Source: Candidatus Thorarchaeota archaeon
GTDB lineage: Archaea > Asgardarchaeota > Thorarchaeia > Thorarchaeales > Thorarchaeaceae
DNA: 27,026 bases
Assembly: GCA_019057475.1 (NCBI GenBank)
Contig: DXJO01000009.1
Location: 1 to 27,026, forward strand
Direction of reading: 5' to 3'
Shown: piece by piece, positions 16,711 to 27,026 of the stretch
Layout of the letters: each line of letters begins with the position of its first letter
How positions within the stretch are numbered: the first letter of the stretch is position 1
Program-made: the position numbers and the translations under genes
The notes under the pieces: model-generated
The model's input: the letters and a program-made list of their open reading frames with translations, nothing else
What the model was told of the DNA's origin: nothing
Databases searched by the model: none

Positions 16711-16887
16711 ATCTGCATGAGAGGAAGTGGTTGTTGGGCAGCTTAAGCATTGCGTATCTAGCTTATGAGCCTGACCTCAACGGGACTCCCAAAGAAAGCC
16801 CAATAATCTACGGTATTATGGATTGAGCAAGGCCTTATTGACCGGGAAAATAGAGGTCAGGCGATTAGTTGATGGGGTTCCTTTCAA

Positions 16888-18852
16888 TCACTTCGCTCGT
16901 CTGATTTCCTCAACGGCTTCAGGATTGACCAGCGAGGAGGTATCACCTAGATCCTCTCCTAGGTAAGCGGCACGTATCGTTCGACGCATCACCTTTGCAT
17001 TGCGAGTCTTTGGCAGGTCGCTGACAAACAGTACTGCTCGCGGAGTAAGAGGTCTACCCATGGCAGTTGTTACCATTCTCTTGAGCTCCTCTCGAAGCGA
17101 CTCAGAGGAGTCGTTCCCGGGTACAAGCACACAGAACACAACAAGCTCATTCAGCTTGACCTCATGAGGGACGCCAATGGCTGCTGCTTCTGCCACAGCC
17201 GGATGACTCACAAGGACAGATTCGGCTTCAGCGGGCCCGAAGCGCTTGCCCGCGATCTTGATTATGTCGTCGGATCGACCTAGAATGTACCAGAGACCAT
17301 CGGAATCAATAGCAGCGAAATCCCCGTGCACCCATACGTTAGGCCAACGTGACCAGTAGGTTTTCTCGTAGCGTTCGGGGTCCCTCCAGAATCCTCGTGT
17401 CATTCCAATCCAAGGGGCCTTGATGACAAGTTCCCCAACCTGGTCGCGGACAGGCGTGCCATCTTCGTCAAACACGTCGGCAGCAATTCCTGGACAGGGA
17501 GCCGAAAAGGCACATGCCTTGAGCGGCAATAGAGGGTTGCCCATCACTATGCCTCCAGAAATTTCTGTCCCACCAGAGTAATTGATAATTGGGACAGTTC
17601 CTTTTCCAACTTTCTCAAACAGCCACATCCAAGGAGCAGGATTCCACGGCTCACCTGTGGAACCGAAGAAGCGAAGTGATGACAAGTCGTGTTTCCTCAC
17701 GGGAGCTTCTCCGTAAGTCATCAACAGTCTAATCAGTGTGGGTGATACACCGAGCATAGTGATTTTGTGCTTCGCGACCTGTTCCCACACGCGACCAGGA
17801 CCAGGGTAGTTGGGCGCGCCGTCGAATATGACGAAGGTCCCACTCAAGATCAATGTGCCGAAGACTAACCAAGGACCCATCATCCATCCCATGTCAGTCA
17901 TCCAATAGATGATCTGACCCGGATGTAGGTCAGTGCCAAAAGCCATGTCTTGAGCTGCTTTGACTGGAAATCCGCAATGAGTATGAACAGCTCCCTTGGC
18001 AAGGCCTGTGGTGCCTGATGTGTAGATGATCATCAGGGGATCGTCTGCCCCCATGATTTCAGTTGGAGCACTATCCGATTGGCCTGAAGTGATATCTTCC
18101 CACCAGTAGTCCCGGTCTTCCCTCATATGGACTGAGGTTTTGGCCCGGTTCAATACAATCATGTGTTCCAGTGTAGGAATCTGCTCTGCTGCTTCATCAG
18201 CGATAGGTTTCATAGTTACTAGTTGCCCTCGACGAAAGAAGCCATCAGCAGTGAACAGCGCCTTGGCTTCTGCATCGGCCAGACGATTTACAATCGCGTT
18301 GACTCCAAAACCTGAGAACAGGGGCAAAATTATGCCGCCAATCTTGGCTATCGCCAACAAGGCGACCACAATCTCAGGGACCATCGGCATGAAGATTCCT
18401 ACTGGGTCACCAGAACCTAGACCAAGAAACCGTAGCGCATTGGCAGCCTTGTTGACTTCTCGAAACAGCTCTCCATAAGTCATTGACCGTGTTTCACCAT
18501 CTTCTCCTTCCCAGATGAACGCGTCACGCTTCTCAACTGATGTGCCCATGTACTTGTCAAGGCAATTGTGGACTACATTCATCTTCCCGCCAATGCACCA
18601 ACGCGGCCATGCCATCCCTCGGGAAAGATCCACAACCTGCTCATATGGTTCATAGAATCGGATGTCAAGATACTTCAGAACTGCATCAGTAAACCAAGCG
18701 ATATCGTTCGTAGAGCGTTTCATCAGTTCACTAAAGCTCCCTATTCGATGCAATCGCATGAACTGAGTTAGGTTCGCCTCCTGCACATATTCGGGCGTGG
18801 GTCGCCAAGCAATCTCGCCACCAAACTTGAAGCTTTCTTTCATTGAACTCAC
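16888..18852 (-). CDS. AMP-forming acetyl/acyl-CoA synthetase
   Basis: YTSGTTGLAKG P-loop, TDMGWMMG, STGEPWN, SGGTE, GRSDD and PKTRNAKVMRR. Confidence 0.92.
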   Translation of the reverse strand: MSSMKESFKFGGEIAWRPTPEYVQEANLTQFMRLHRIGSFSELMKRSTNDIAWFTDAVLKYLDIRFYEPYEQVVDLSRGMAWPRWCIGGKMNVVHNCLDKYMGTSVEKRDAFIWEGEDGETRSMTYGELFREVNKAANALRFLGLGSGDPVGIFMPMVPEIVVALLAIAKIGGIILPLFSGFGVNAIVNRLADAEAKALFTADGFFRRGQLVTMKPIADEAAEQIPTLEHMIVLNRAKTSVHMREDRDYWWEDITSGQSDSAPTEIMGADDPLMIIYTSGTTGLAKGAVHTHCGFPVKAAQDMAFGTDLHPGQIIYWMTDMGWMMGPWLVFGTLILSGTFVIFDGAPNYPGPGRVWEQVAKHKITMLGVSPTLIRLLMTYGEAPVRKHDLSSLRFFGSTGEPWNPAPWMWLFEKVGKGTVPIINYSGGTEISGGIVMGNPLLPLKACAFSAPCPGIAADVFDEDGTPVRDQVGELVIKAPWIGMTRGFWRDPERYEKTYWSRWPNVWVHGDFAAIDSDGLWYILGRSDDIIKIAGKRFGPAEAESVLVSHPAVAEAAAIGVPHEVKLNELVVFCVLVPGNDSSESLREELKRMVTTAMGRPLTPRAVLFVSDLPKTRNAKVMRRTIRAAYLGEDLGDTSSLVNPEAVEEIRRAK

Positions 18853-19048
18853 TCCACGGGTCTAGTGTGATAGTGCGGCCGCTATCGAATCGCGCTCACG
18901 CCTTATGCATCGGCCTATTATAATATGGGGATTACCTGCAATTGCACTGCCTTAGAGAGCGCAAATGTGCTGCGACAGGAATCAAGAATGCTCTCCCATG
19001 TAAGAGAGCTTCCGTGACTCGCCGACAATGGTGAACAAAGCTGGCGCA

Positions 19049-19088
19049 GAATGAGGGGGCGCTCAGCAGTGGGCAAAGAGTAAGCTCC
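19049..19088 (+). repeat. Array repeat copy 1
   Basis: GAATGAGGGGGCGCTCAGCAGTGGGCAAAGAGTAAGCTCC. Confidence 0.9.
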
Positions 19089-19147
19089 TTTTCCCAAATC
19101 CGTCAACCTCTACTTTGTTCACCATCTTGAGTGAGTGGGATAGCCTG

Positions 19148-19963
19148 TCATCCGTCCGGCGCTCTCTCTCGAGCAAGCCGCTCCCTTTTGAACACAGCCA
19201 GGAGTATGATTGCTGTTAGCCACAGGAAACCCAAGTACAGGAAACCGAACTGTTGATCACCGGATGACACGATCAATATGCTTGCTAGGTAATTGATTGA
19301 CGAATGTCCAATTATGCATACGAAAACACTCTCAGTATTGTTGTATAGCCAAGTGAAAAAGAAAGCAAGTGGCACAGCCATCAGTAGCAACCCAATGAAT
19401 GACCCCTGGGACTCCGCATACCCCGGGATGGCGAAGAGAGGCAGATGCCAGAAAGCCCAGAGCACTGCAAGAACCAGAGTTGACGTTGTTGCGTTATGCT
19501 TGGTCTGCAGCTTTGGAAGTGCGTAGCCTCTCCAGCCGGGTTCTTCTAAACCACCGCTCAAGAAGACACTATACAAGAACAGGAGGGCCAAGTCCAGCCA
19601 GTGACTGCTGTAGATGATAGGAGAAGGACCTCCCAAGAGAAGATTCAGACCAATTGCACCAATGTAAAGCGCCGCTGGCACGAAAAATGAAGCCAACAAC
19701 CATGTGGCCTTCACTTGCCACTTGATACTGCTGGCAACTAGCTCATGGACAGAAGACCGTCCCCCTTCCCTTCCTTTAATGATAAGTGCAGATAAGGCTG
19801 GTCCCAAGATTCCGAAGTATAGTAGTGGTTCAAGACCTTGCATGCTTCCAGCTACGGAAGCGACTACGGCAGCTGACAGCCAACACGCCCAAGAGATTCC
19901 ATAGGCAAGAATGAAGAACATCGCAAGCGGTTTCATTCCTTGGCTTTCTCTCACGACGGCCAT
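19148..19963 (-). CDS. CPBP/Abi (type II CAAX) intramembrane metalloprotease
   Basis: LEEPGWRGYALP, LWAFWHLP and IIGHSSIN motifs. Confidence 0.92.
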   Translation of the reverse strand: MAVVRESQGMKPLAMFFILAYGISWACWLSAAVVASVAGSMQGLEPLLYFGILGPALSALIIKGREGGRSSVHELVASSIKWQVKATWLLASFFVPAALYIGAIGLNLLLGGPSPIIYSSHWLDLALLFLYSVFLSGGLEEPGWRGYALPKLQTKHNATTSTLVLAVLWAFWHLPLFAIPGYAESQGSFIGLLLMAVPLAFFFTWLYNNTESVFVCIIGHSSINYLASILIVSSGDQQFGFLYLGFLWLTAIILLAVFKRERLARERAPDG

Positions 19964-20077
19964 CTTGGACCCTCGTTTATTGGTCCGACCTAGACAATAC
20001 TATCTCTTAAACCTTCCAACGTGATGATGCCTTCTCCAAACCTGCTGTCGCGTAGACGCCTTTCAACAAAAGACCGT

Positions 20078-20109
20078 GAAATGAAAAGGGTGCTCAGCAG
20101 TAGGCAAAG
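20078..20109 (+). repeat. Array repeat copy 2
   Basis: GAAATGAAAAGGGTGCTCAGCAGTAGGCAAAG. Confidence 0.9.
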
Positions 20110-20142
20110 ATGTTTATCAGAAACCATTCCTGCAGAATCAAT

Positions 20143-20616
20143 ATGAGCCTTCTAGAAAGATTGGGTGAATACCTCATTTGGGCAGATGCAGCAATCTGGG
20201 AGATTGTGAAGGATTTGAGTGATGAGGAGTTCGACAGATCCTTTGGCGAATATGGGGGTAGTACTAGGAAGCGGTATACTCACTTGGCAGAGGACACTTG
20301 GGAGTGGTATCATGACTGGATTGGGAAGGCCCCCGAGCAGGAGCCAGACTTCCAGAACATGACGAGGGAGCAACTCTTTGACTGTCTGTCGGATTATAGT
20401 CACAGGTTCATTGAGATGATTGAACACCGAGCAGTGGGAGAAATTGAGCTTAAGACAGCAGGAAAAGCAATCCCATTGTCATTCGATGAAATCCTCTTCC
20501 ATATTGTCAACCATGCCACATATCATCGAGGACAGATTGTGATGGGGCTACGAATGCTTGACAAAGAGGTACGCATGACAGATTATGTCCCATATAGGAT
20601 TGACACAGCAGAGTAG
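20143..20616 (+). CDS. DinB/YfiT family protein
   Basis: YLIWAD, first His in YTHL, ILFHIVNHATYHRGQI. TTTATCA box about 25-30 nt upstream of ATG 20143. Confidence 0.88.
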   Translation: MSLLERLGEYLIWADAAIWEIVKDLSDEEFDRSFGEYGGSTRKRYTHLAEDTWEWYHDWIGKAPEQEPDFQNMTREQLFDCLSDYSHRFIEMIEHRAVGEIELKTAGKAIPLSFDEILFHIVNHATYHRGQIVMGLRMLDKEVRMTDYVPYRIDTAE

Positions 20617-20637
20617 TGAAGTGTTTCTTGCCATAAG

Positions 20638-20666
20638 GAAAAGAATGCTCAGCAGTGAGCAGAAGG
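20638..20666 (+). repeat. Array repeat copy 3
   Basis: GAAAAGAATGCTCAGCAGTGAGCAGAAGG. Confidence 0.85.
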
Positions 20667-20669
20667 CAA

Positions 20670-21251
20670 TTAGAGGGTTTTCTTCTTCAGAAACTCGTTT
20701 CTAAGTAGTCCAAAGAAGATGGTACCTGAAGAAGTTCCATCAGGGTTCTTCTTGTTTTCTCTAATATGACCTTCTTTAGCAAACCCGCATCTTTCTGCAA
20801 CACCAATACTCCTGACATTAGTATCATCTGTTTCGATTCGTATTCTATGAGCATTCAGAATCTCAAAAAGTGATTTGACTACAGCTTTCACAGCCTCTGT
20901 TACGTATCCTTTTCCCTCATGTTCTACATCTGCGAAATAGCCGATTCCAAACTCAGGCATATTCCGACCTATAGGACCTATGTAGAGCTGAGCCACAAAC
21001 TGTTCGGACTCTTTGAGGAAAACCCCCATGAAGAAATGAGTACGTTTTTCCCACTCGTTTACAAGATCAGCTATCATCTTCTTAGCATCTTCTTCGGTCT
21101 TGATTTCCATTGCTGGATTTTGTTGTTCATACCTCTCTAGATGTGCATGGTTTCTCTGGCTCATATCAAAATACCAGCTCTCGTCACCTTCACGATATGA
21201 ACGGAGAATTAGTCGACTAGTTTCTATGACCGATGGGAGTGTGGTATCCAT
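20670..21251 (-). CDS. RimJ/RimL-type GNAT acetyltransferase
   Basis: IETSRLILR, IGYF...EGKGYVTEAV, NVRSIGVAERCGFAKEGHIR. Confidence 0.9.
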   Translation of the reverse strand: MDTTLPSVIETSRLILRSYREGDESWYFDMSQRNHAHLERYEQQNPAMEIKTEEDAKKMIADLVNEWEKRTHFFMGVFLKESEQFVAQLYIGPIGRNMPEFGIGYFADVEHEGKGYVTEAVKAVVKSLFEILNAHRIRIETDDTNVRSIGVAERCGFAKEGHIRENKKNPDGTSSGTIFFGLLRNEFLKKKTL

Positions 21252-21343
21252 ATCATAGACACCTTGCCTTAGTGATGCCCAAGAACATAATCATATCTCA
21301 GTTCCGGTAAAAAATAATTTGTTCTAGTTTGAGAGATAATTGC

Positions 21344-21468
21344 AAAATGAAAGGGTGCTCAGCAGTAGGCAAAGGGTAAGCTCCCGATAGCGTCGGGGCA
21401 ACCTGACGATTGCACCGCTACCCCGTCTTAGCCTGCACCTCAATCTGTCCGAGGATAGGATATGCAAT
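21344..21468 (+). repeat. Array repeat copy 4 (long, structured form)
   Basis: 21349-21440 is nearly identical to 24791-24883, with weaker similarity for about 28 nt further. Confidence 0.95.
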
Positions 21469-21511
21469 GGTGCGCAGCCTTGTGGGCATTGTGTCTGAGG
21501 ATGTGACCATA

Positions 21512-21913
21512 CTAGTACGACTCGATAATCAGACCCGAGATTTGCTGAAAGTGCTTCGTGTTGCGTGTAAGTAGTCTTCGGATCCCATATGCAAGAGTGG
21601 TTCCAGCAATCATAACGTCACGAGCCCCAACTGGTTTCCCTTTGTTCATCACATCTGCTAGAAGCCTTGCTGACTCCATTGCTGCTTCTCTCTCAAAGGG
21701 AAGAACTTCCATTCGTGTCAGAACCTGCTCAAGCTCTTCAGCTCGTTTCTTCATCTTCGATTTCGAGGTGTTCTTTGAAATCCGATACAACCCTGTGTAT
21801 AGCTCGAAGACATTGACCTCTGATGTGTAAAGCGCCTGCTCCTCTGAGCTGGTTAGCCATGAAATTGCCGCGTCGTCCTTTCTGAGAAGGTCCACCAAGT
21901 ACGTCGTGTCCAA
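21512..21913 (-). CDS. vapC: PIN-domain toxin VapC
   Basis: (L)DTTYLVDLLR, NVFELYTG, RDVMIAGT, LLTRNTKHF. The true start may be slightly upstream, overlapping the antitoxin stop. Confidence 0.92.
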   Translation of the reverse strand: MDTTYLVDLLRKDDAAISWLTSSEEQALYTSEVNVFELYTGLYRISKNTSKSKMKKRAEELEQVLTRMEVLPFEREAAMESARLLADVMNKGKPVGARDVMIAGTTLAYGIRRLLTRNTKHFQQISGLIIESY

Positions 21914-21918
21914 GAGTA

Positions 21919-22167
21919 TCAGCTGAGGTCAACTCCTTCCGGACGAAGGGTTTCTCGTATCCCGTCAAATGTGTCCTCCAGCCGTGCAATCTCCTCACAG
22001 GTCAGGTCACTCCAACCTTCCGACGACTCAGCCCATAGACGTAGTGAGGCTGATGTCTTTGTTCTACAGAGTCGGGCGATGGCGTCCCCAAAGCTCTCTC
22101 CGGGAAGGCGCATCTTCTTGAGAAGATTGTAGACTTCCTCTGTGATTGAGATTGTCTTCGAACCCAT
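21919..22167 (-). CDS. vapB: Archaeal VapB-type (RHH) antitoxin
   Basis: KTISITEEVYNLLKKMRLPGESFGDAIARL, directly upstream of vapC. Confidence 0.88.
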   Translation of the reverse strand: MGSKTISITEEVYNLLKKMRLPGESFGDAIARLCRTKTSASLRLWAESSEGWSDLTCEEIARLEDTFDGIRETLRPEGVDLS

Positions 22168-22178
22168 TCTAGCTCACA

Positions 22179-22212
22179 ATCTACATATACATATGTAGAT
22201 ATATAAAGATGT
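22179..22212 (-). promoter_or_regulatory. vapBC operator palindrome plus TATA box
   Basis: Perfect ATCTACATAT-AC-ATATGTAGAT inverted repeat abutting CTTTATAT on the - strand. Confidence 0.75.
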
Positions 22213-22403
22213 GCACGGAATCAAGAGCTAGAGGCTATCCTAATCCCAATGTGAGAGAACCGATTCCAGCACAATGAAGGAACCTCAAGGACAGATACCT
22301 ACAATCCCGATTGGTTAGGCATTCCAACCATAGGTAGGTGCAGATAAGCATCAGACTTCAATACTAACAGATGTGGCTGTATGTGAAATTGAGTTGAAGA
22401 TGG

Positions 22404-22982
22404 ATGACTCGACATTACGCACTCTTCTTCGATGGAGCATGTGAACCAAGAAACCCCGGCGGTATCGCTTCATATGGTTTCCAGCTCGCGGTCAATGGAA
22501 AAGAGCTATTGAGTAACAAGGGAGTAGTCGGGGAAGGACATGGTATGACAAACAATGTTGCTGAGTATCATGCACTTATCCAAGGATTGAACTGTGTCAA
22601 ACAGCGGGCTGAGAAAGGCGATACAGTTGCGGTCATTGGTGACAGCCAGCTGGTCATAAGACAGATGACTGGGGCTTACAAAGTCAGATCGCAGAGTATC
22701 ATTCCGCTATTTGCTCGAGCTAAGAAACTGCGAAATCAGCTTCGTGGGAAAGGAGTTCGAGTGCGTTTCAAATGGGTACCAAGAGATGAGAACGCCGTGG
22801 CTGATGCGCTCTCTCACGCAGCGTTTGAAGAGTACTGCATAGAGAAGGGCTATCTGTTCAGCGCGTGTGAATGTGGTGGTACACTCATTCCTCGAAAAAA
22901 CACAAAGACCGGCCACAAGTTTTTCGGTTGTTCAAGATTCCCCGAGTGTAGGCGCACTGCACCTTTTCCTGATAAGTCCTGA
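22404..22982 (+). CDS. Ribonuclease HI fused to a topoisomerase-type C4 zinc ribbon
   Basis: FDGACEPRNPG, TNNVAEY, GDSQLV, WVPRDENAVAD, then CECGGTLIPR...FFGCSRFPEC. Confidence 0.88.
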   Translation: MTRHYALFFDGACEPRNPGGIASYGFQLAVNGKELLSNKGVVGEGHGMTNNVAEYHALIQGLNCVKQRAEKGDTVAVIGDSQLVIRQMTGAYKVRSQSIIPLFARAKKLRNQLRGKGVRVRFKWVPRDENAVADALSHAAFEEYCIEKGYLFSACECGGTLIPRKNTKTGHKFFGCSRFPECRRTAPFPDKS

Positions 22983-22995
22983 CAATCTGTGGAAG

Positions 22996-23037
22996 GAGGA
23001 GGAATGTTCAGCAGTGGGCAAAGGGAAAGCTCTCGAT
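22996..23037 (+). repeat. Array repeat copy 5
   Basis: GAGGAGGAATGTTCAGCAGTGGGCAAAGGGAAAGCTCTCGAT. Confidence 0.85.
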
Positions 23038-23124
23038 TCAGCTAACCCGTCATCTTTTACACATTCGTTTCACGAATGAATGCCGCTTGGTGTGAAATCA
23101 AGAGCTCGTAGGAATGGAGATTGT

Positions 23125-23712
23125 CTAGCTTGGCCTCTGTGAGATTATCCACACTTCAATGAGGACTCCGGCAAGTTGGGACAGTGAAACTATATGCATA
23201 TCTGGACTGTTTGCAGATGGGTCAACAAGCTGTACTGAATCCCCATCCAAATCCTGCACTAGAGCAACATGCTCCTCATCATCCCCTCCCGTCAGTTTTC
23301 GCTGATTAATACATACCACCACATCGTCATCGTAATTCAGGTGATCTATCAGGAATCCATCCAGAGTGGCAATGCTGGCCGCCCGATAACGAAAAAGATG
23401 GAGCGGTATATTATGTCGATTGAAGTATCGTTGAATTGAGAATTCCTCCGATCTTGTCTGTGTCCCCCATCCTGATTGTGGTTTGGTGCCTGTCCGAACC
23501 CAACTGAAGTGACACGTGGCGTCCTCAGGGACAATCAGTCCTAGCTCATTCCCGATCAACTCCTGTTCTGGAACTGGCATCTGGCGCCGTTCGAATACCA
23601 TCTGGAGGATTGCTGGCACACAACAAAACGGCAGTTCAAGCCTACGCTTGTACGGAGGATTGACTCTCCCTGGCGTTTCTCGATTGCTTGGCATAACCAT
23701 TACTAAATACAC
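23125..23712 (-). CDS. Papain-like (C39-like) cysteine peptidase domain protein
   Basis: CCVPAILQM (Cys-helix), EEHVALV (His) and LVDP (Asp) in the C39-like order. Start uncertain. Confidence 0.65.
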   Translation of the reverse strand: MYLVMVMPSNRETPGRVNPPYKRRLELPFCCVPAILQMVFERRQMPVPEQELIGNELGLIVPEDATCHFSWVRTGTKPQSGWGTQTRSEEFSIQRYFNRHNIPLHLFRYRAASIATLDGFLIDHLNYDDDVVVCINQRKLTGGDDEEHVALVQDLDGDSVQLVDPSANSPDMHIVSLSQLAGVLIEVWIISQRPS

Positions 23713-23781
23713 TGATTGTTCGTTTAATGCTGTCGGAGTTCATTGACAGAGTGTCAGCTGCAGAAAAGAAGTGTTGCAGAA

Positions 23782-23814
23782 GAAAAGAAGGGTGCTCAGC
23801 AGAGGGGATGGGCA
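23782..23814 (+). repeat. Array repeat copy 6 (diverged after the core)
   Basis: GAAAAGAAGGGTGCTCAGCAG-AGGGGA-TGGGCA. Confidence 0.8.
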
Positions 23815-23915
23815 GGATCCGTGGAATCTGCCCCGGCCGCTCTTATTTTGGTTTATGAGGTAGGAGCCTTCCATGTGGAATCGTGTCGAAGAGTCTGACT
23901 ATTGTACAGACTTGA

Positions 23916-24677
23916 CTACGATGTTTCGATTGGATTGCGAATCGGAATTCCCAAGTAGCCCCGGATATTGTAGAAATGTTCTCTCTCATGCTCCAGAAGA
24001 CGTCTCAAGACTTTATGGGCAGACCATAGTTCGTCTGGGTAGCTCGTGTATTCTGATCTAGTAAAGCACTTCCCGGATACCAAAGGAATCATCTCTCCAA
24101 GGGTTTCAACACAGGCGATTCTCACAACACTAAGTCTATCAATGATCGGGAGTTCCTGAATCTCCGACTCCGTCATGCCCACATTTCTCCTGTACGCGGT
24201 ATCTGCATCCGGACCCAAGCGTGAAACGTAGAACTCCTCGGCATTGCATACGTGAGATAGAATATCCAAGATGTTGCGTTTCTTGTGCGGCGGAACCATT
24301 AGCATCATTTGCGGGCGAATGTCTGCAATCAGCTCTTGCAAGTCTCTCCTGCTGTGACTCATTAGATGAATAGCTCTCTCAAGTGAAAGCTGAGTCACCT
24401 TCCTCCTATCAAACTCAAAGAAGGCGACCTCCCCACCCGACTCTCCGAGTTTGCGGATACCGGCCAATTCCTCACCAATTACAATCTTCGGCTCGGTAAT
24501 CTCAGATATATCCTCGTCATGACGCCTTAACCAATCAAGGTGGTACTGCAGCTCCTGCTCAAGTCTGTCCAAGAGAACCAATCTGCTATGGGCTCGAGCA
24601 TGTGTTCCCAAGTAATCTATGAACCTGCCATACCAGATTCCAGTGTTGCTGCGCTCAATGGCCACTGCTAGATCCAT
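23916..24677 (-). CDS. HicB-like N-terminal domain fused to a DinB-like domain
   Basis: N-terminus AVAIER...WYGRFIDYLGTHARA; C-terminus ILSHVCNAEEFY...KVLRRLLEHEREH. Confidence 0.65.
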   Translation of the reverse strand: MDLAVAIERSNTGIWYGRFIDYLGTHARAHSRLVLLDRLEQELQYHLDWLRRHDEDISEITEPKIVIGEELAGIRKLGESGGEVAFFEFDRRKVTQLSLERAIHLMSHSRRDLQELIADIRPQMMLMVPPHKKRNILDILSHVCNAEEFYVSRLGPDADTAYRRNVGMTESEIQELPIIDRLSVVRIACVETLGEMIPLVSGKCFTRSEYTSYPDELWSAHKVLRRLLEHEREHFYNIRGYLGIPIRNPIETS

Positions 24678-24786
24678 ATTATGTCACAACCACACTTTAT
24701 GTTGATTTCACTGGTCTTGTTTCTAACTCAACAGGGTGGTGATAAAGACCTCTGGATATGGCTTCTCCGCTGGTAGCAATACATTA

Positions 24787-24911
24787 GAAAGAAAGGGTGC
24801 TCAGCAGTGGGCAGAAAGGTAAACTCCCGATGGCGTCGGGGCAACCTGACGATTGCGCCGCTACCCCGTCTTAGCCTGCACCTTACCCTGTCCGAGAACA
24901 GAGTGAGCAAT
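24787..24911 (+). repeat. Array repeat copy 7 (long, structured form)
   Basis: Near-identical to copy 4. Confidence 0.95.
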
Positions 24912-24961
24912 AATAAACAGACTTCGAGGCGAAAAGTAAATGTGGAGTTGGTGCAGGATTC

Positions 24962-25345
24962 TTAGATTACCTTCGAATGTTCTTCAATCCAATCAGTGAG
25001 TTCTTCTGAGTCGATATCCCCCTGAATAACTCCTAGGAGAGTGGTTTCTGCATTCTCTACGGTAGCAGTTAGTCTGTAACCATTCAGAAGTAGAAAGACC
25101 TTTGCAGCTGTCCATGCAGTTCTCTTATTTCCATCTACAAAGGGATGTCTTGTAGCAATGCAATGAAGTAGTGTAGCAGCCTTAGACCATATCGAAGGAC
25201 TTGTTTCAGTACCAAAGATGGACATCATTGGGAGTGCTACACAGTTCTCCAGAGCTTCTTCAGAGAGAATGCCATCCTCTCCACCAAAGACCTCAATCAT
25301 TCTATTGTGAATGCCCATTATCTCATCGAATATGAGATACCTCAC
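24962..25345 (-). CDS. doc: Death-on-curing (Fic/Doc) toxin
   Basis: HPFVDGNKRTA Doc-type motif and IHNRMIEVFGG. Confidence 0.92.
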   Translation of the reverse strand: MRYLIFDEIMGIHNRMIEVFGGEDGILSEEALENCVALPMMSIFGTETSPSIWSKAATLLHCIATRHPFVDGNKRTAWTAAKVFLLLNGYRLTATVENAETTLLGVIQGDIDSEELTDWIEEHSKVI

Positions 25346-25370
25346 TTCTAAGAACTCCCAAGATTAGCAC

Positions 25371-25580
25371 TTACTGTGCTAGTTTCTCGAGGAGCTCCGA
25401 ATCTTCCTTGACAATCTCATCGAGAGCTTTTTTGAAGGCAGCATCGAAATGCTTTCCACGAGCCTTCACACCACATAGACGTAGAATCGTGTCGTCAATC
25501 CGTTCACCTGGAAGCCTCATCTTCTCTATCAGTTCATAGACCTCCTCTGAGATTGAGATTGTCTTTGTAGTCAACGACAC
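25371..25580 (-). CDS. VapB-type (RHH) antitoxin partnering Doc
   Basis: KTISISEEVYELIEKMRLPGERIDDTILRLC, homologous to 21919..22167. Ends in ELLEKLAQ. Confidence 0.85.
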   Translation of the reverse strand: MSLTTKTISISEEVYELIEKMRLPGERIDDTILRLCGVKARGKHFDAAFKKALDEIVKEDSELLEKLAQ

Positions 25581-25586
25581 CAGGCC

Positions 25587-25629
25587 TCAATGGTACATCG
25601 ATTGTGATTGATATAAAGATGTACATTGA
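25587..25629 (-). promoter_or_regulatory. TA promoter with inverted repeat bracketing the TATA box
   Basis: TCAATGGTACATC...GATGTACATTGA (one bulge). Shares ATATAAAGATGT with 22201-22212. Confidence 0.65.
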
Positions 25630-25662
25630 ATATGGATTCATCTTTAGATAATTGAAGAATGC

Positions 25663-25702
25663 GAAATGAAAAAGTGCTCAGCAGTGAGCAATGGGTAATC
25701 CC
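25663..25702 (+). repeat. Array repeat copy 8
   Basis: GAAATGAAAAAGTGCTCAGCAGTGAGCAATGGGTAATCCC. Confidence 0.85.
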
Positions 25703-25848
25703 TCAATACTCTATCACCGCCGCCTCTATTTCTCTCTACCTTCTTGTATGCGCTTTCCGTCAATATCCCTTCTAGTGAAAACAAAAAGAATTAGATATAC
25801 AGAGGCAATATGCTCAGAGCAAATGATATTGCAAACTTGGACATGGAT

Positions 25849-26790
25849 TTAGTCTGGAAGTCTATTCAATTGTGTCGTTTCAATTAGGTTATACTCCTTG
25901 AGAGCTTTTAGACATTGGACGGTTATTTTTCCAGCCCATTCTTCTTTAGCGATTGGCCAAACAGCTTCATATTGGCCCCACTCCCAAGTCGGCCACCAAC
26001 CTCCGTCATCAGACTGTCTTTCAATTTCAGAGTCAAGAAACACATGTACTGTATCAGGGAAGAGTCTATACATGATTGATTCGGGATCAGGTGCTAATGA
26101 AAAAATTCTAATCTCACGCAGTGTTTTTTCATTCAGTGGCGAGATTTTTCGTAGCGTGCGCTCGATTTTGTCTTCTGCTTTCATCCTTAGAGATTCGGGG
26201 AGGCAGTGACAGGCGCGATTCCAGCAAATTACATCATAGAGAAGTCCCTCGATATATTTCGAGCTATCAAGATTGAGGAGAACTCGTCTATTGACTAAGC
26301 TCAATACTTCTTCAGGAACATGGATCGCGTACTTATTCAGGTATCCTACAAGCTCAGCATTTGGATTCGGCCACTTCGCTTCTGGTGGTGATGTGATCTC
26401 GTCTGCATGCCACCAGGGTGCATGTGGTTCTTCATTTACATCCATGAATGTAAAAGGCCAAAATCCACCATCCGATTGATAGGTTGAAATCAGATATTTG
26501 ATGGCAGATTGTACGATGATGTCTTCGGGATCTACCTCGATTTCAACACAATATTGTAGTCCCACTGATGTGGCCATCGGAGAAGATGCTTCGAGTCTGA
26601 AATCAGGTTCTATAGCATTGCCAAAACCTCCATCTGGGTTCTGGTACTTAGCTAAAGCCCTCAAGACTTCATTCTTAGAACCATTCTCGAAGTGATATTC
26701 GAACAGTTTCCTATCAAGAATCCGAGCATGATTTCTAACAAAATCGCATGCTTGATGGAATTTTCCTCTCTTCAGTAGCAGTTCATTCAC
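25849..26790 (-). CDS. Prenyltransferase/squalene-cyclase repeat (alpha/alpha toroid) protein
   Basis: QW-like repeats QNPDGGFG, QSDGGFW and QSDDGGW, plus HAPWW. The first track codons (26791-26811) appear to belong to the IS end, so GTG at 26790 is used. Confidence 0.75.
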   Translation of the reverse strand: MNELLLKRGKFHQACDFVRNHARILDRKLFEYHFENGSKNEVLRALAKYQNPDGGFGNAIEPDFRLEASSPMATSVGLQYCVEIEVDPEDIIVQSAIKYLISTYQSDGGFWPFTFMDVNEEPHAPWWHADEITSPPEAKWPNPNAELVGYLNKYAIHVPEEVLSLVNRRVLLNLDSSKYIEGLLYDVICWNRACHCLPESLRMKAEDKIERTLRKISPLNEKTLREIRIFSLAPDPESIMYRLFPDTVHVFLDSEIERQSDDGGWWPTWEWGQYEAVWPIAKEEWAGKITVQCLKALKEYNLIETTQLNRLPD

Positions 26791-26944
26791 CGTTACCCGA
26801 AACCTAGACAATCCTAGACATCAAGGTCCTGAACTGATGTTCGGTTCCTGCTTCATCGAGGTTGCTTTTTGTTAATTCCGAAGAATTAACTGAAAGTCTT
26901 ACGTCCTCTCCACGGGCATTTTACGTCCCCGGCCAACTGACGGT
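26790..26944 (-). ncRNA. TnpB omegaRNA-like scaffold / IS607-like right end
   Basis: The - strand reads ACCGTCAGTTGGCCGGGGACGTAAAATGCCCGTGGAGAGG...GTTAATTC-TTCG-GAATTAAC...CCTCGATGAAGCAGGAACCGAAC...TGTCTAGGATTGTCTAGGTTTCGGGTAACGG. It has GCCYGTGGAG and TGAAGCAGGAA blocks that I recognise from tnpB 3' regions, a cUUCGg hairpin, tandem direct repeats and an AACGG end. Confidence 0.7.
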
Positions 26945-27026
26945 GACGGTAGAGTCATCCTTGGACTTGGTTCTCGTCCTGGACTGACACTACATGTACA
27001 GGTCCCTCTCTGGAGTATATTAACAC

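Follow-up and report, generated by a model that had tools for sequence, protein, structure and literature searches.

Tandem islands at the 3' ends of tRNA and tmRNA genes involve an integrase and a fixed crossover, and in two other classes of elements, namely, free-standing homing endonucleases with introns that lack open reading frames (ORFs) and the rDNA-targeting R2 elements, a nuclease cleaves a conserved gene in alleles that lack the intron or insertion. Here we describe an array of gene cassettes in a 27,026-nt stretch of DNA (hereafter, the window), contig C41 of a Thorarchaeota genome denoted G000, and its relationship to the 16S rRNA gene and to an element that combines a giant Cas1-like protein with the nuclease TnpB; the compared genomes are denoted G0xx.

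The closest described systems are TnpB-based. In the homing of IS200/IS605 elements, the TnpB guide is the flank of the element and the target is the empty donor joint (Karvelis 2021, PMC8612924; Meers 2023, 10.1101/2023.03.14.532601); the TnpB of ISDra2 cuts 15-21 nt from the transposon-associated motif (TAM) (PMC8612924). The aCas1-TnpB loci of Asgard archaea are reported by Altae-Tran et al. 2023 (PMC10691335), where Makarova et al. 2020 is cited for them; that report names no target for these loci and suggests a guide upstream of a motif found next to tnpB. The TnpB proteins with a rearranged RuvC site are classified there as the RIIr type (PMC10691335).

Each repeat of the window array is a 5'-truncated copy of the 16S rRNA 3' trailer that consists of one strand of the processing stem and a T-rich tract. 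We consider it moderately probable that the array has built up as scars left by RNA-guided allele replacement at the 3' end of 16S.

Displaced copies of the 16S rRNA trailer

The first-pass annotation of the window, made from the sequence alone, reported eight copies of a motif that delimit small gene modules. All eight cores, at 19060, 20091, 20646, 21356, 23005, 23793, 24798 and 25675, are indeed present, all on the + strand, and the first 19 kb contain none; in the shuffled window, core matches average 0.07 and never exceed 1. The motif corresponds to the 16S trailer read in reverse complement, the trailer consisting of the 3' strand of the processing stem and then the T-rich tract. The sole 16S gene of G000 (C9:14000-15531) carries one copy in its leader and an inverted one directly after the gene. 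The leader-trailer duplex has a folding energy of -77.6 kcal/mol vs -44 for shuffled trailers, and the base of the stem covaries in 18 of 18 genomes; the duplex contains bulges, with no canonical bulge-helix-bulge assigned. An exact search with the 22-nt core across 185,579 genomes retrieved 30 stretches, titled Thorarchaeota, Promethearchaeota, Hermodarchaeota or uncultured archaeon, and those that could be matched belong to genomes of the window's own family. The Rfam scan of the window yielded no real family, and the tRNA search of the window was negative as well. The possibilities that the repeat is an attC-like hairpin or a free-standing RNA were rejected: single-strand folding is no better than in shuffles (z-scores of -0.7 to +0.4 for three copies on both strands, with no unusual hairpin stability).

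The motif is not scattered genome-wide. Outside the window, the 3.34-Mb genome has it on C9 (seven copies) and singly on C42 and C28. Very probably, the array begins behind the 16S gene on C9 and the window covers its distal part: C41 and C9 are taken as one array of about 15 modules because they end in the same multi-copy element and their modules are adjacent in four congeners. Neither the 16S gene nor the Cas1-TnpB element could be seen in the first-pass annotation because both are on another contig. The orphan trailer copies are located at C28:15830-15980 and C42:290688-290813; the former abuts a copy of the end of an acyl-CoA dehydrogenase gene (acd), suggesting traffic between arrays.

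A profile scan of related genomes with the trailer model detects 176 displaced copies in 26 Thorarchaeota genomes. On contigs that contain a 16S end, 61 of the 63 copies lie downstream on the same strand. The only exceptions to this polarity are two inverted copies upstream of 16S at G029:C81:53898-54463, possibly an inversion. In G058 (CP070658.1), an array is present at 1017014-1022625 on a single contig with no 16S match found, which suggests an assembly gap or sequence missing from the record.

The gene content and order of the modules change exactly at the repeats, as expected of the cassette array originally proposed: the blocks shared with four congeners (G081, G083, G084 and G085) begin and end at trailer copies, and these four genomes share an outer border at window position ~16720, each with a different adjoining module. 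Purely serial addition of modules, as first envisaged, is not borne out, given that some relative orders are reversed between congeners. The S9-peptidase module is directly behind the trailer in G085 and is preceded by two further modules in G000. Multi-module blocks are common to different genera, and 16 of 102 copies best match another genus. The copies vary in length between about 24 and more than 200 nt (in the window, about 27 to 122 bp, with only one end common to all) and start anywhere between about -44 (in insert-free coordinates relative to the 16S end) and +130, so that there is no single fixed crossover.

These features bear directly on the mechanism put forward in the first-pass annotation, in which a recombinase acting in trans regenerates a dedicated site. 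The boundary is not attC, as had been recognized, with no R-box pair within 40-160 nt around any of the eight copies, and the absence of an integrase also holds: IntI and tyrosine recombinase searches are negative at the arrays, the best IntI match (TIGR02249) in the 96% complete genome scoring 31.5 bits vs the cut-off of 265. A site-specific recombinase acting on a core near the stem base would account for the ~20 nt common to all copies, and G000 has 8 tyrosine-recombinase matches outside the arrays. However, the conservation of this core is explained by its pairing with the 16S leader, the repeat is a host rRNA trailer with a variable start, no tyrosine recombinase occurs in any array examined, and none was detected genome-wide in 4 of 5 array-bearing genomes, in a loose first look that may miss weak genes. 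This mechanism therefore appears highly improbable. More remote still is the origin of the repeats as retro-copies of the processed pre-rRNA trailer that were joined to other RNAs and then reinserted: the fixed end at the T-rich tract and the truncated 5' ends do resemble reverse transcripts, but a loose genome-level look finds no RVT_1 match in G000, the copies keep an unspliced insert at the 16S 3' end, and the cargo comes in both orientations, divergent gene pairs included.

The aCas1-TnpB element and its guides

Behind the C9 trailer, a 1,693-aa giant ORF lies head-to-head with a gene for a 580-aa TnpB. The coordinates on C9, outside the window, are 15748-~21000 for the giant (aCas1), 21191-22933 for TnpB and ~22965-23045 for the guides. 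The frame of the giant (L002:5749-10830 on C9) is open for 1,751 codons, about 57 of which precede the called TTG; the homologs start in this upstream segment, which makes a non-canonical start likely. In about 11 genomes from 7 genera, the closest giant subfamily is found at or within the 16S trailer array; several other trailer copies are followed by 3' fragments of the giant. aCas1-TnpB is represented in 36 of 59 genomes of the family and in 2 genomes of one other family among 251 sampled. The idea that the repeat is the 3' RNA of the giant gene was rejected: the 16S gene is beside it, and the paralogs of the giant lack the repeat. Two such paralogs in G000, at C53:7049-9286 and C54:171720-173867, pair with 715-745-aa Cas12-like proteins rather than with the 580-aa TnpB.

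The giant has no match in Pfam and PDB sequence searches. In a structure model of residues 1-810 with a predicted local distance difference test score (pLDDT) of 81, residues 1-159 resemble the Cas1 catalytic domain (5vvk, 8flj, 3nke and 4w8k; Z 9.0-9.3, root-mean-square deviation 3.3-3.4 over 127-130 residues), the Z scores being only moderate since the domain is helical, and residues 539-777 resemble the RecA/KaiC fold (Z 11.8). Within the Cas1-like domain, E13, H101, D109 and D112 are conserved, and the spacings of E13, H101 and D112 appear to fit the Cas1 active site. Invariant motif residues, together with weak Atlas leads, point to a putative PD-(D/E)XK motif between the Cas1-like and RecA-like domains. 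The fold search of residues 800-1693 returned a C-terminal TPR-like bundle only, the remainder being barely tested.

TnpB matches NF040570 over the cut-off and, in 30 of 30 loci, keeps the RuvC-I aspartate, an alternative glutamate and the RuvC-III aspartate, with glycine at RuvC-II (the rearranged type). This protein looks catalytically intact, and its interpretation as a dead guide protein was rejected owing to the alternative glutamate. The motif GTTCACTCA is located downstream of tnpB; the giant, TnpB and this motif together fit the aCas1-TnpB loci of PMC10691335.

The Cas1 fold with its four conserved residues is compatible with guided integration, whereby TnpB would mark the site and the Cas1 domain would insert DNA casposase-style, such that the trailer would be a long target-site duplication, as in CRISPR adaptation with gene-sized spacers. 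The direct repeats of the target that flank the elements and the proximal insertion in G000 vs G085 point the same way. Nevertheless, the duplicated lengths vary, copies on the two sides of one element differ in type, TnpB seems to retain its catalytic residues, the guide sites in 16S precede the insertion point, and the Cas1 domain may serve guide acquisition only. Casposons are marked by a family B polymerase, terminal inverted repeats and a duplication of fixed length; here, the core element has no polymerase-sized extra gene, and neither terminal inverted repeats nor common cassette ends were noticed. We regard guided integration as quite unlikely.

In the 16S-type elements, GTTCACTCA is followed by a short repeat, CAGGTCGG, and then by 12-27 nt matching 16S, often in the form of a mini-array. 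The guides in 13 elements match four 16S sites, near 1345, 1391, 1492 and the 3' end, two per strand, and each target is preceded by GGAT or GAAT (shared GRAT). The longest guide-16S match is 27 nt; 12 of 5000 random 12-mers match in the control. At each of the four sites, some alleles have hairpin inserts of ~30 nt, and the match between the 27-nt guide of G000 and its own 16S is broken by such an insert after 10 nt. The site in the element's own host is intact for 3 of the 13 guides vs 7.7 expected (P 0.008, a naive value that, like the one for mvhD below, ignores the relatedness of the genomes). Over 16 nt, a guide in G076 matches the junction of the insert in the G060 allele, a possible sign of counter-escape.

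Analogous relationships hold for other genes. Guides against the G-C-M-Q codons of mvhD are present in 15 elements. Of 18 such guides, none shows a match longer than 8 nt to the allele linked to it, and 17 match the allele of another element over at least 11 nt (naive P 0.006). In G000 (C18:35404-51177), aCas1-TnpB is located at mvhD, with a displaced 5' fragment of the gene upstream and two 3' fragments downstream; the fragments are separated by a PIN gene and a methyltransferase. The single 23S gene of G000, meant as a negative control, is followed by five same-strand copies of its own end or trailer (C46:38079-47545) that separate units of one to three genes, L050 holding the 23S end. A guide of the G054:C2 element matches the G000 23S trailer for 16 nt. 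The prediction that this element would reside behind a 23S gene was confirmed, with a displaced trailer copy on the far side, and the guide has a mismatch at position 4, in the seed, to its own 23S allele. The 3' end of acd is present in about 12 copies (G000 C26:102020-133416) with a sharp left edge 14-20 nt after GGAT, and further copies are found on C28, C51 and C22. Other TnpB guides of the family (L234, L227, L220, L230, L228 and L146) resemble tRNA gene segments (tRNA-Arg-like, a tRNA-Asp-like 5' end, the T-arm), some of them beside a tRNA gene that differs in sequence.

A candidate mechanism of array growth

The mobile aCas1 giant with the divergent TnpB is positioned behind the 16S trailer in many Thorarchaeota, and its short guides aim at conserved 16S sites, to which the linked allele is usually resistant. 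Under the allele replacement mechanism that we favor, donor DNA with the element would meet a sensitive allele, which TnpB would cut about 15-21 nt past the TAM. The left end would be repaired by homology from the resistant 16S end of the donor, with the donor trailer and the following element or cargo copied, and the far end would be joined to the trimmed right arm of the recipient through microhomology, an older trailer copy, or the Cas1, nuclease and RecA-like domains of the giant. The right arm would stay behind as a trailer copy, and the copies do display a fixed distal end with a variable start just past the predicted cut. The fixed distal end needs no enzyme because it is simply where the older sequence begins. 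The eight repeats of the window would thus be old right arms, and later recombination between direct repeats would explain the deletion and reordering of modules that is apparent among the genomes.

With the ISDra2 cut distance, the predicted cuts fall at +4 to +10 past the 16S end for the 3'-end guide and near -50 for the 1492 guide. The start is between +2 and +19 in 29 of the 63 high-confidence copies, and those that reach into 16S start at or downstream of about -44 (insert-free), just downstream of the 1492 site, often keeping an unspliced insert. None starts further upstream, the one longer case being a native trailer at a contig edge. In the window, the starts at +18, +35 and +37, the rest being decayed, fit this pattern without proving it.

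Host homologous recombination alone could also build such arrays, if circles or transformed fragments with a trailer piece integrate by single crossover behind 16S, with aCas1-TnpB as a self-protecting passenger. The reversed module orders, the blocks common to genera and the cross-genus matches of copies described above are readily accommodated by this scenario, as are the occurrence of one module with a host-type trailer middle in different congeners and the many arrays that are now without an element. However, this scenario does not explain how the first duplication arose, why copy starts set in so sharply at the predicted cuts, or why the arrays occur at 16S, 23S and mvhD, which are the loci with guides found. 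Overall, we deem it unlikely that host recombination suffices.

Several considerations weigh against allele replacement guided by TnpB. Cutting by TnpB is deduced from a sequence signature, the cut distance is taken over from ISDra2 TnpB, the variable first hairpin of the trailer may skew the apparent start points, and in most window copies decay has gone too far for a cut to be dated. The element in G000 itself carries no guide for the 3'-end site of 16S, and for three 16S guides there is a match of 12-14 nt to their own allele; these three exceptional guides have 12-nt matches or a mutated repeat. Statistical support is tempered by the relatedness of the genomes noted above. No guide to acd was found, either in a pattern search, which stayed at the control level, or in about 70 post-TnpB regions, and several array-bearing genomes (G009, G041, G065 and G067) lack the giant with this query. 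The C41-C9 join, although very probable, connects contigs that were not assembled together. Finally, the first entry of new cargo into an array is left unexplained by the model.

A broader, more tentative proposal, plausible yet falling somewhat short of probable, is that the Cas1-TnpB family is a programmable, self-updating gene drive. The Cas1 domain would add guides to a minimal array, TnpB would cut rival alleles of essential genes, the giant would help to join the ends, and hosts would escape through rRNA micro-introns and synonymous recoding. Integron-like capture at rRNA and housekeeping genes would be a by-product, and the family would represent an extant intermediate linking TnpB transposons with type V CRISPR-Cas.

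The window array and its relation to known systems

The limits originally assigned to the array (19049-25702) are too narrow. The acetyl-CoA synthetase-like (acs) gene (16888-18852), annotated as the outermost module (16721-19049, - strand), also belongs to it because four congeners have the repeat directly at window position ~16720, up to which they match before continuing into a trailer copy and a different module; in G000, this outer repeat is missing. At the other end, 25741-27026 most likely continues into C9.

All trailer copies in the window are on the - strand, which is the rRNA sense. Copy 1 (19050-19122), diverged and of a short type, is recognized by the trailer hidden Markov model with an E-value of 1.3e-8 and is followed by a type II CAAX (Rce1-like) protease (19148-19963, - strand; PF02517, E 9.6e-16). 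Copy 2 (20078-20107) retains the stem base and T-tract only, with an identical junction in the congener G084, where the adjacent DinB-family protein (20110-20616, + strand; PF05163) is the outermost module; the block 20078-20631 is 88% identical in G084:C336. Copy 3 (20632-20670) is decayed and abuts the stop codon of a GNAT acetyltransferase (20670-21251, - strand; PF13302). The first-pass annotation correctly placed copy 2 between divergent and copy 3 between convergent genes. Copy 4 (21340-21461) is long and of the host-genus type, 88.5% identical to the C9 trailer over 122 nt, and starts ~37 nt past the 16S end. It precedes a block with a VapBC pair (VapB and a PIN-domain protein; - strand) and an RNase HI with a zinc ribbon (+ strand) (21512-22982) that is common to G083, G084 and G085, where it has other neighbors.

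The distal copies are equally heterogeneous. Copy 5 (22990-23053), diverged, is followed by a C39-like peptidase (23125-23712, - strand), so labeled from Atlas look-alikes at 0.95-0.97, which is outermost in G085 (block 22993-23770 in G085:C27). Next to the decayed copy 6 (23780-23839) is a protein (23916-24677, - strand) whose sole Pfam lead is a weak C-terminal DinB_2 match (PF12867, E 6e-4, under the cut-off). Copy 7 (24786-24907), long and of the host-genus type (93.8% identical to the C9 trailer over 113 nt), starts ~35 nt past the 16S end and is adjacent to an antitoxin and Fic/Doc toxin (24962-25580, - strand) that are whole in G083 and truncated in G081. Copy 8 (25661-25740) starts ~18 nt past the 16S end and belongs to a type that matches the trailer found in a different genus (G065/G067). 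It is followed by a 320-aa protein with a weak prenyltransferase-toroid match (25849-26811, - strand; E 0.02) and the multi-copy element at the contig break (26790-27026, no strand assigned), 131 bp of which are 95% identical to the C9 end and to many other contig ends. Pfam thus supports the cargo as first described for the CAAX protease, DinB, GNAT, VapB with PIN, RNase H with a zinc ribbon and Fic/Doc with its antitoxin, but the HicB part of one module was not confirmed. Positions 1-831 of the window hold an IS200/IS605-type tnpB gene; it and the element at 26790-27026 both break many contigs.

If allele replacement is indeed the mechanism, it would supply a function and named targets for the uncharacterised aCas1-TnpB loci, and cassette arrays could form without an integrase or an attC site. 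Alleles with small inserts at the universal 16S sites near 1391 and 1492 would be resistance alleles, and 16S 3' ends with their trailers would be exchanged between Thorarchaeota genera, with implications for Asgard 16S primers and phylogeny. A multi-guide mini-array TnpB beside a Cas1 domain would bear on the origin of type V CRISPR. The central step lends itself to direct tests because the guides, the TAM, and both sensitive and resistant targets have been identified. Literature searches turned up no account of these arrays or their targets, subscription papers being mostly outside the coverage.

With the published aCas1-TnpB loci, the element shares the Cas1-like gene beside TnpB, GTTCACTCA downstream of tnpB, flanking repeats and the Asgard range. 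Unlike in those loci, the guides lie downstream of the motif after a short repeat, often in a mini-array, the targets are rRNA, mvhD and tRNA genes, and the flanking repeats are displaced host sequence. As in IS200/IS605 homing, an RNA-guided cut by a 5' TAM is proposed to drive homologous repair that favors the element; by contrast, several guides here are directed against rival alleles of an essential gene as far as ~8 kb away, the element protects itself through inserts or synonymous codons, there is no TnpA, and a cargo array accumulates.

The arrays resemble integrons and clusters of attC sites lacking integron integrases (CALINs), including the archaeal ones (Ghaly et al. 2022, PMC9668308), in their tandem one- or two-gene modules, rich in toxin-antitoxin pairs and shuffled at direct repeats, but differ in having no attC boxes, no IntI and no unusual hairpin stability, the repeat being an rRNA trailer of variable length. 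Like the tandem islands at tRNA and tmRNA genes, the incoming DNA would restore the gene end and leave the displaced fragment at the far side, yet there is no integrase and the starts vary. In contrast to homing endonucleases and R2, the targeting appears to be RNA-programmed, multi-site and retargetable, with no reverse transcriptase. If these loci indeed combine an RNA-guided allele drive with the building of integron-like arrays out of host gene ends, the combination matches no known system.

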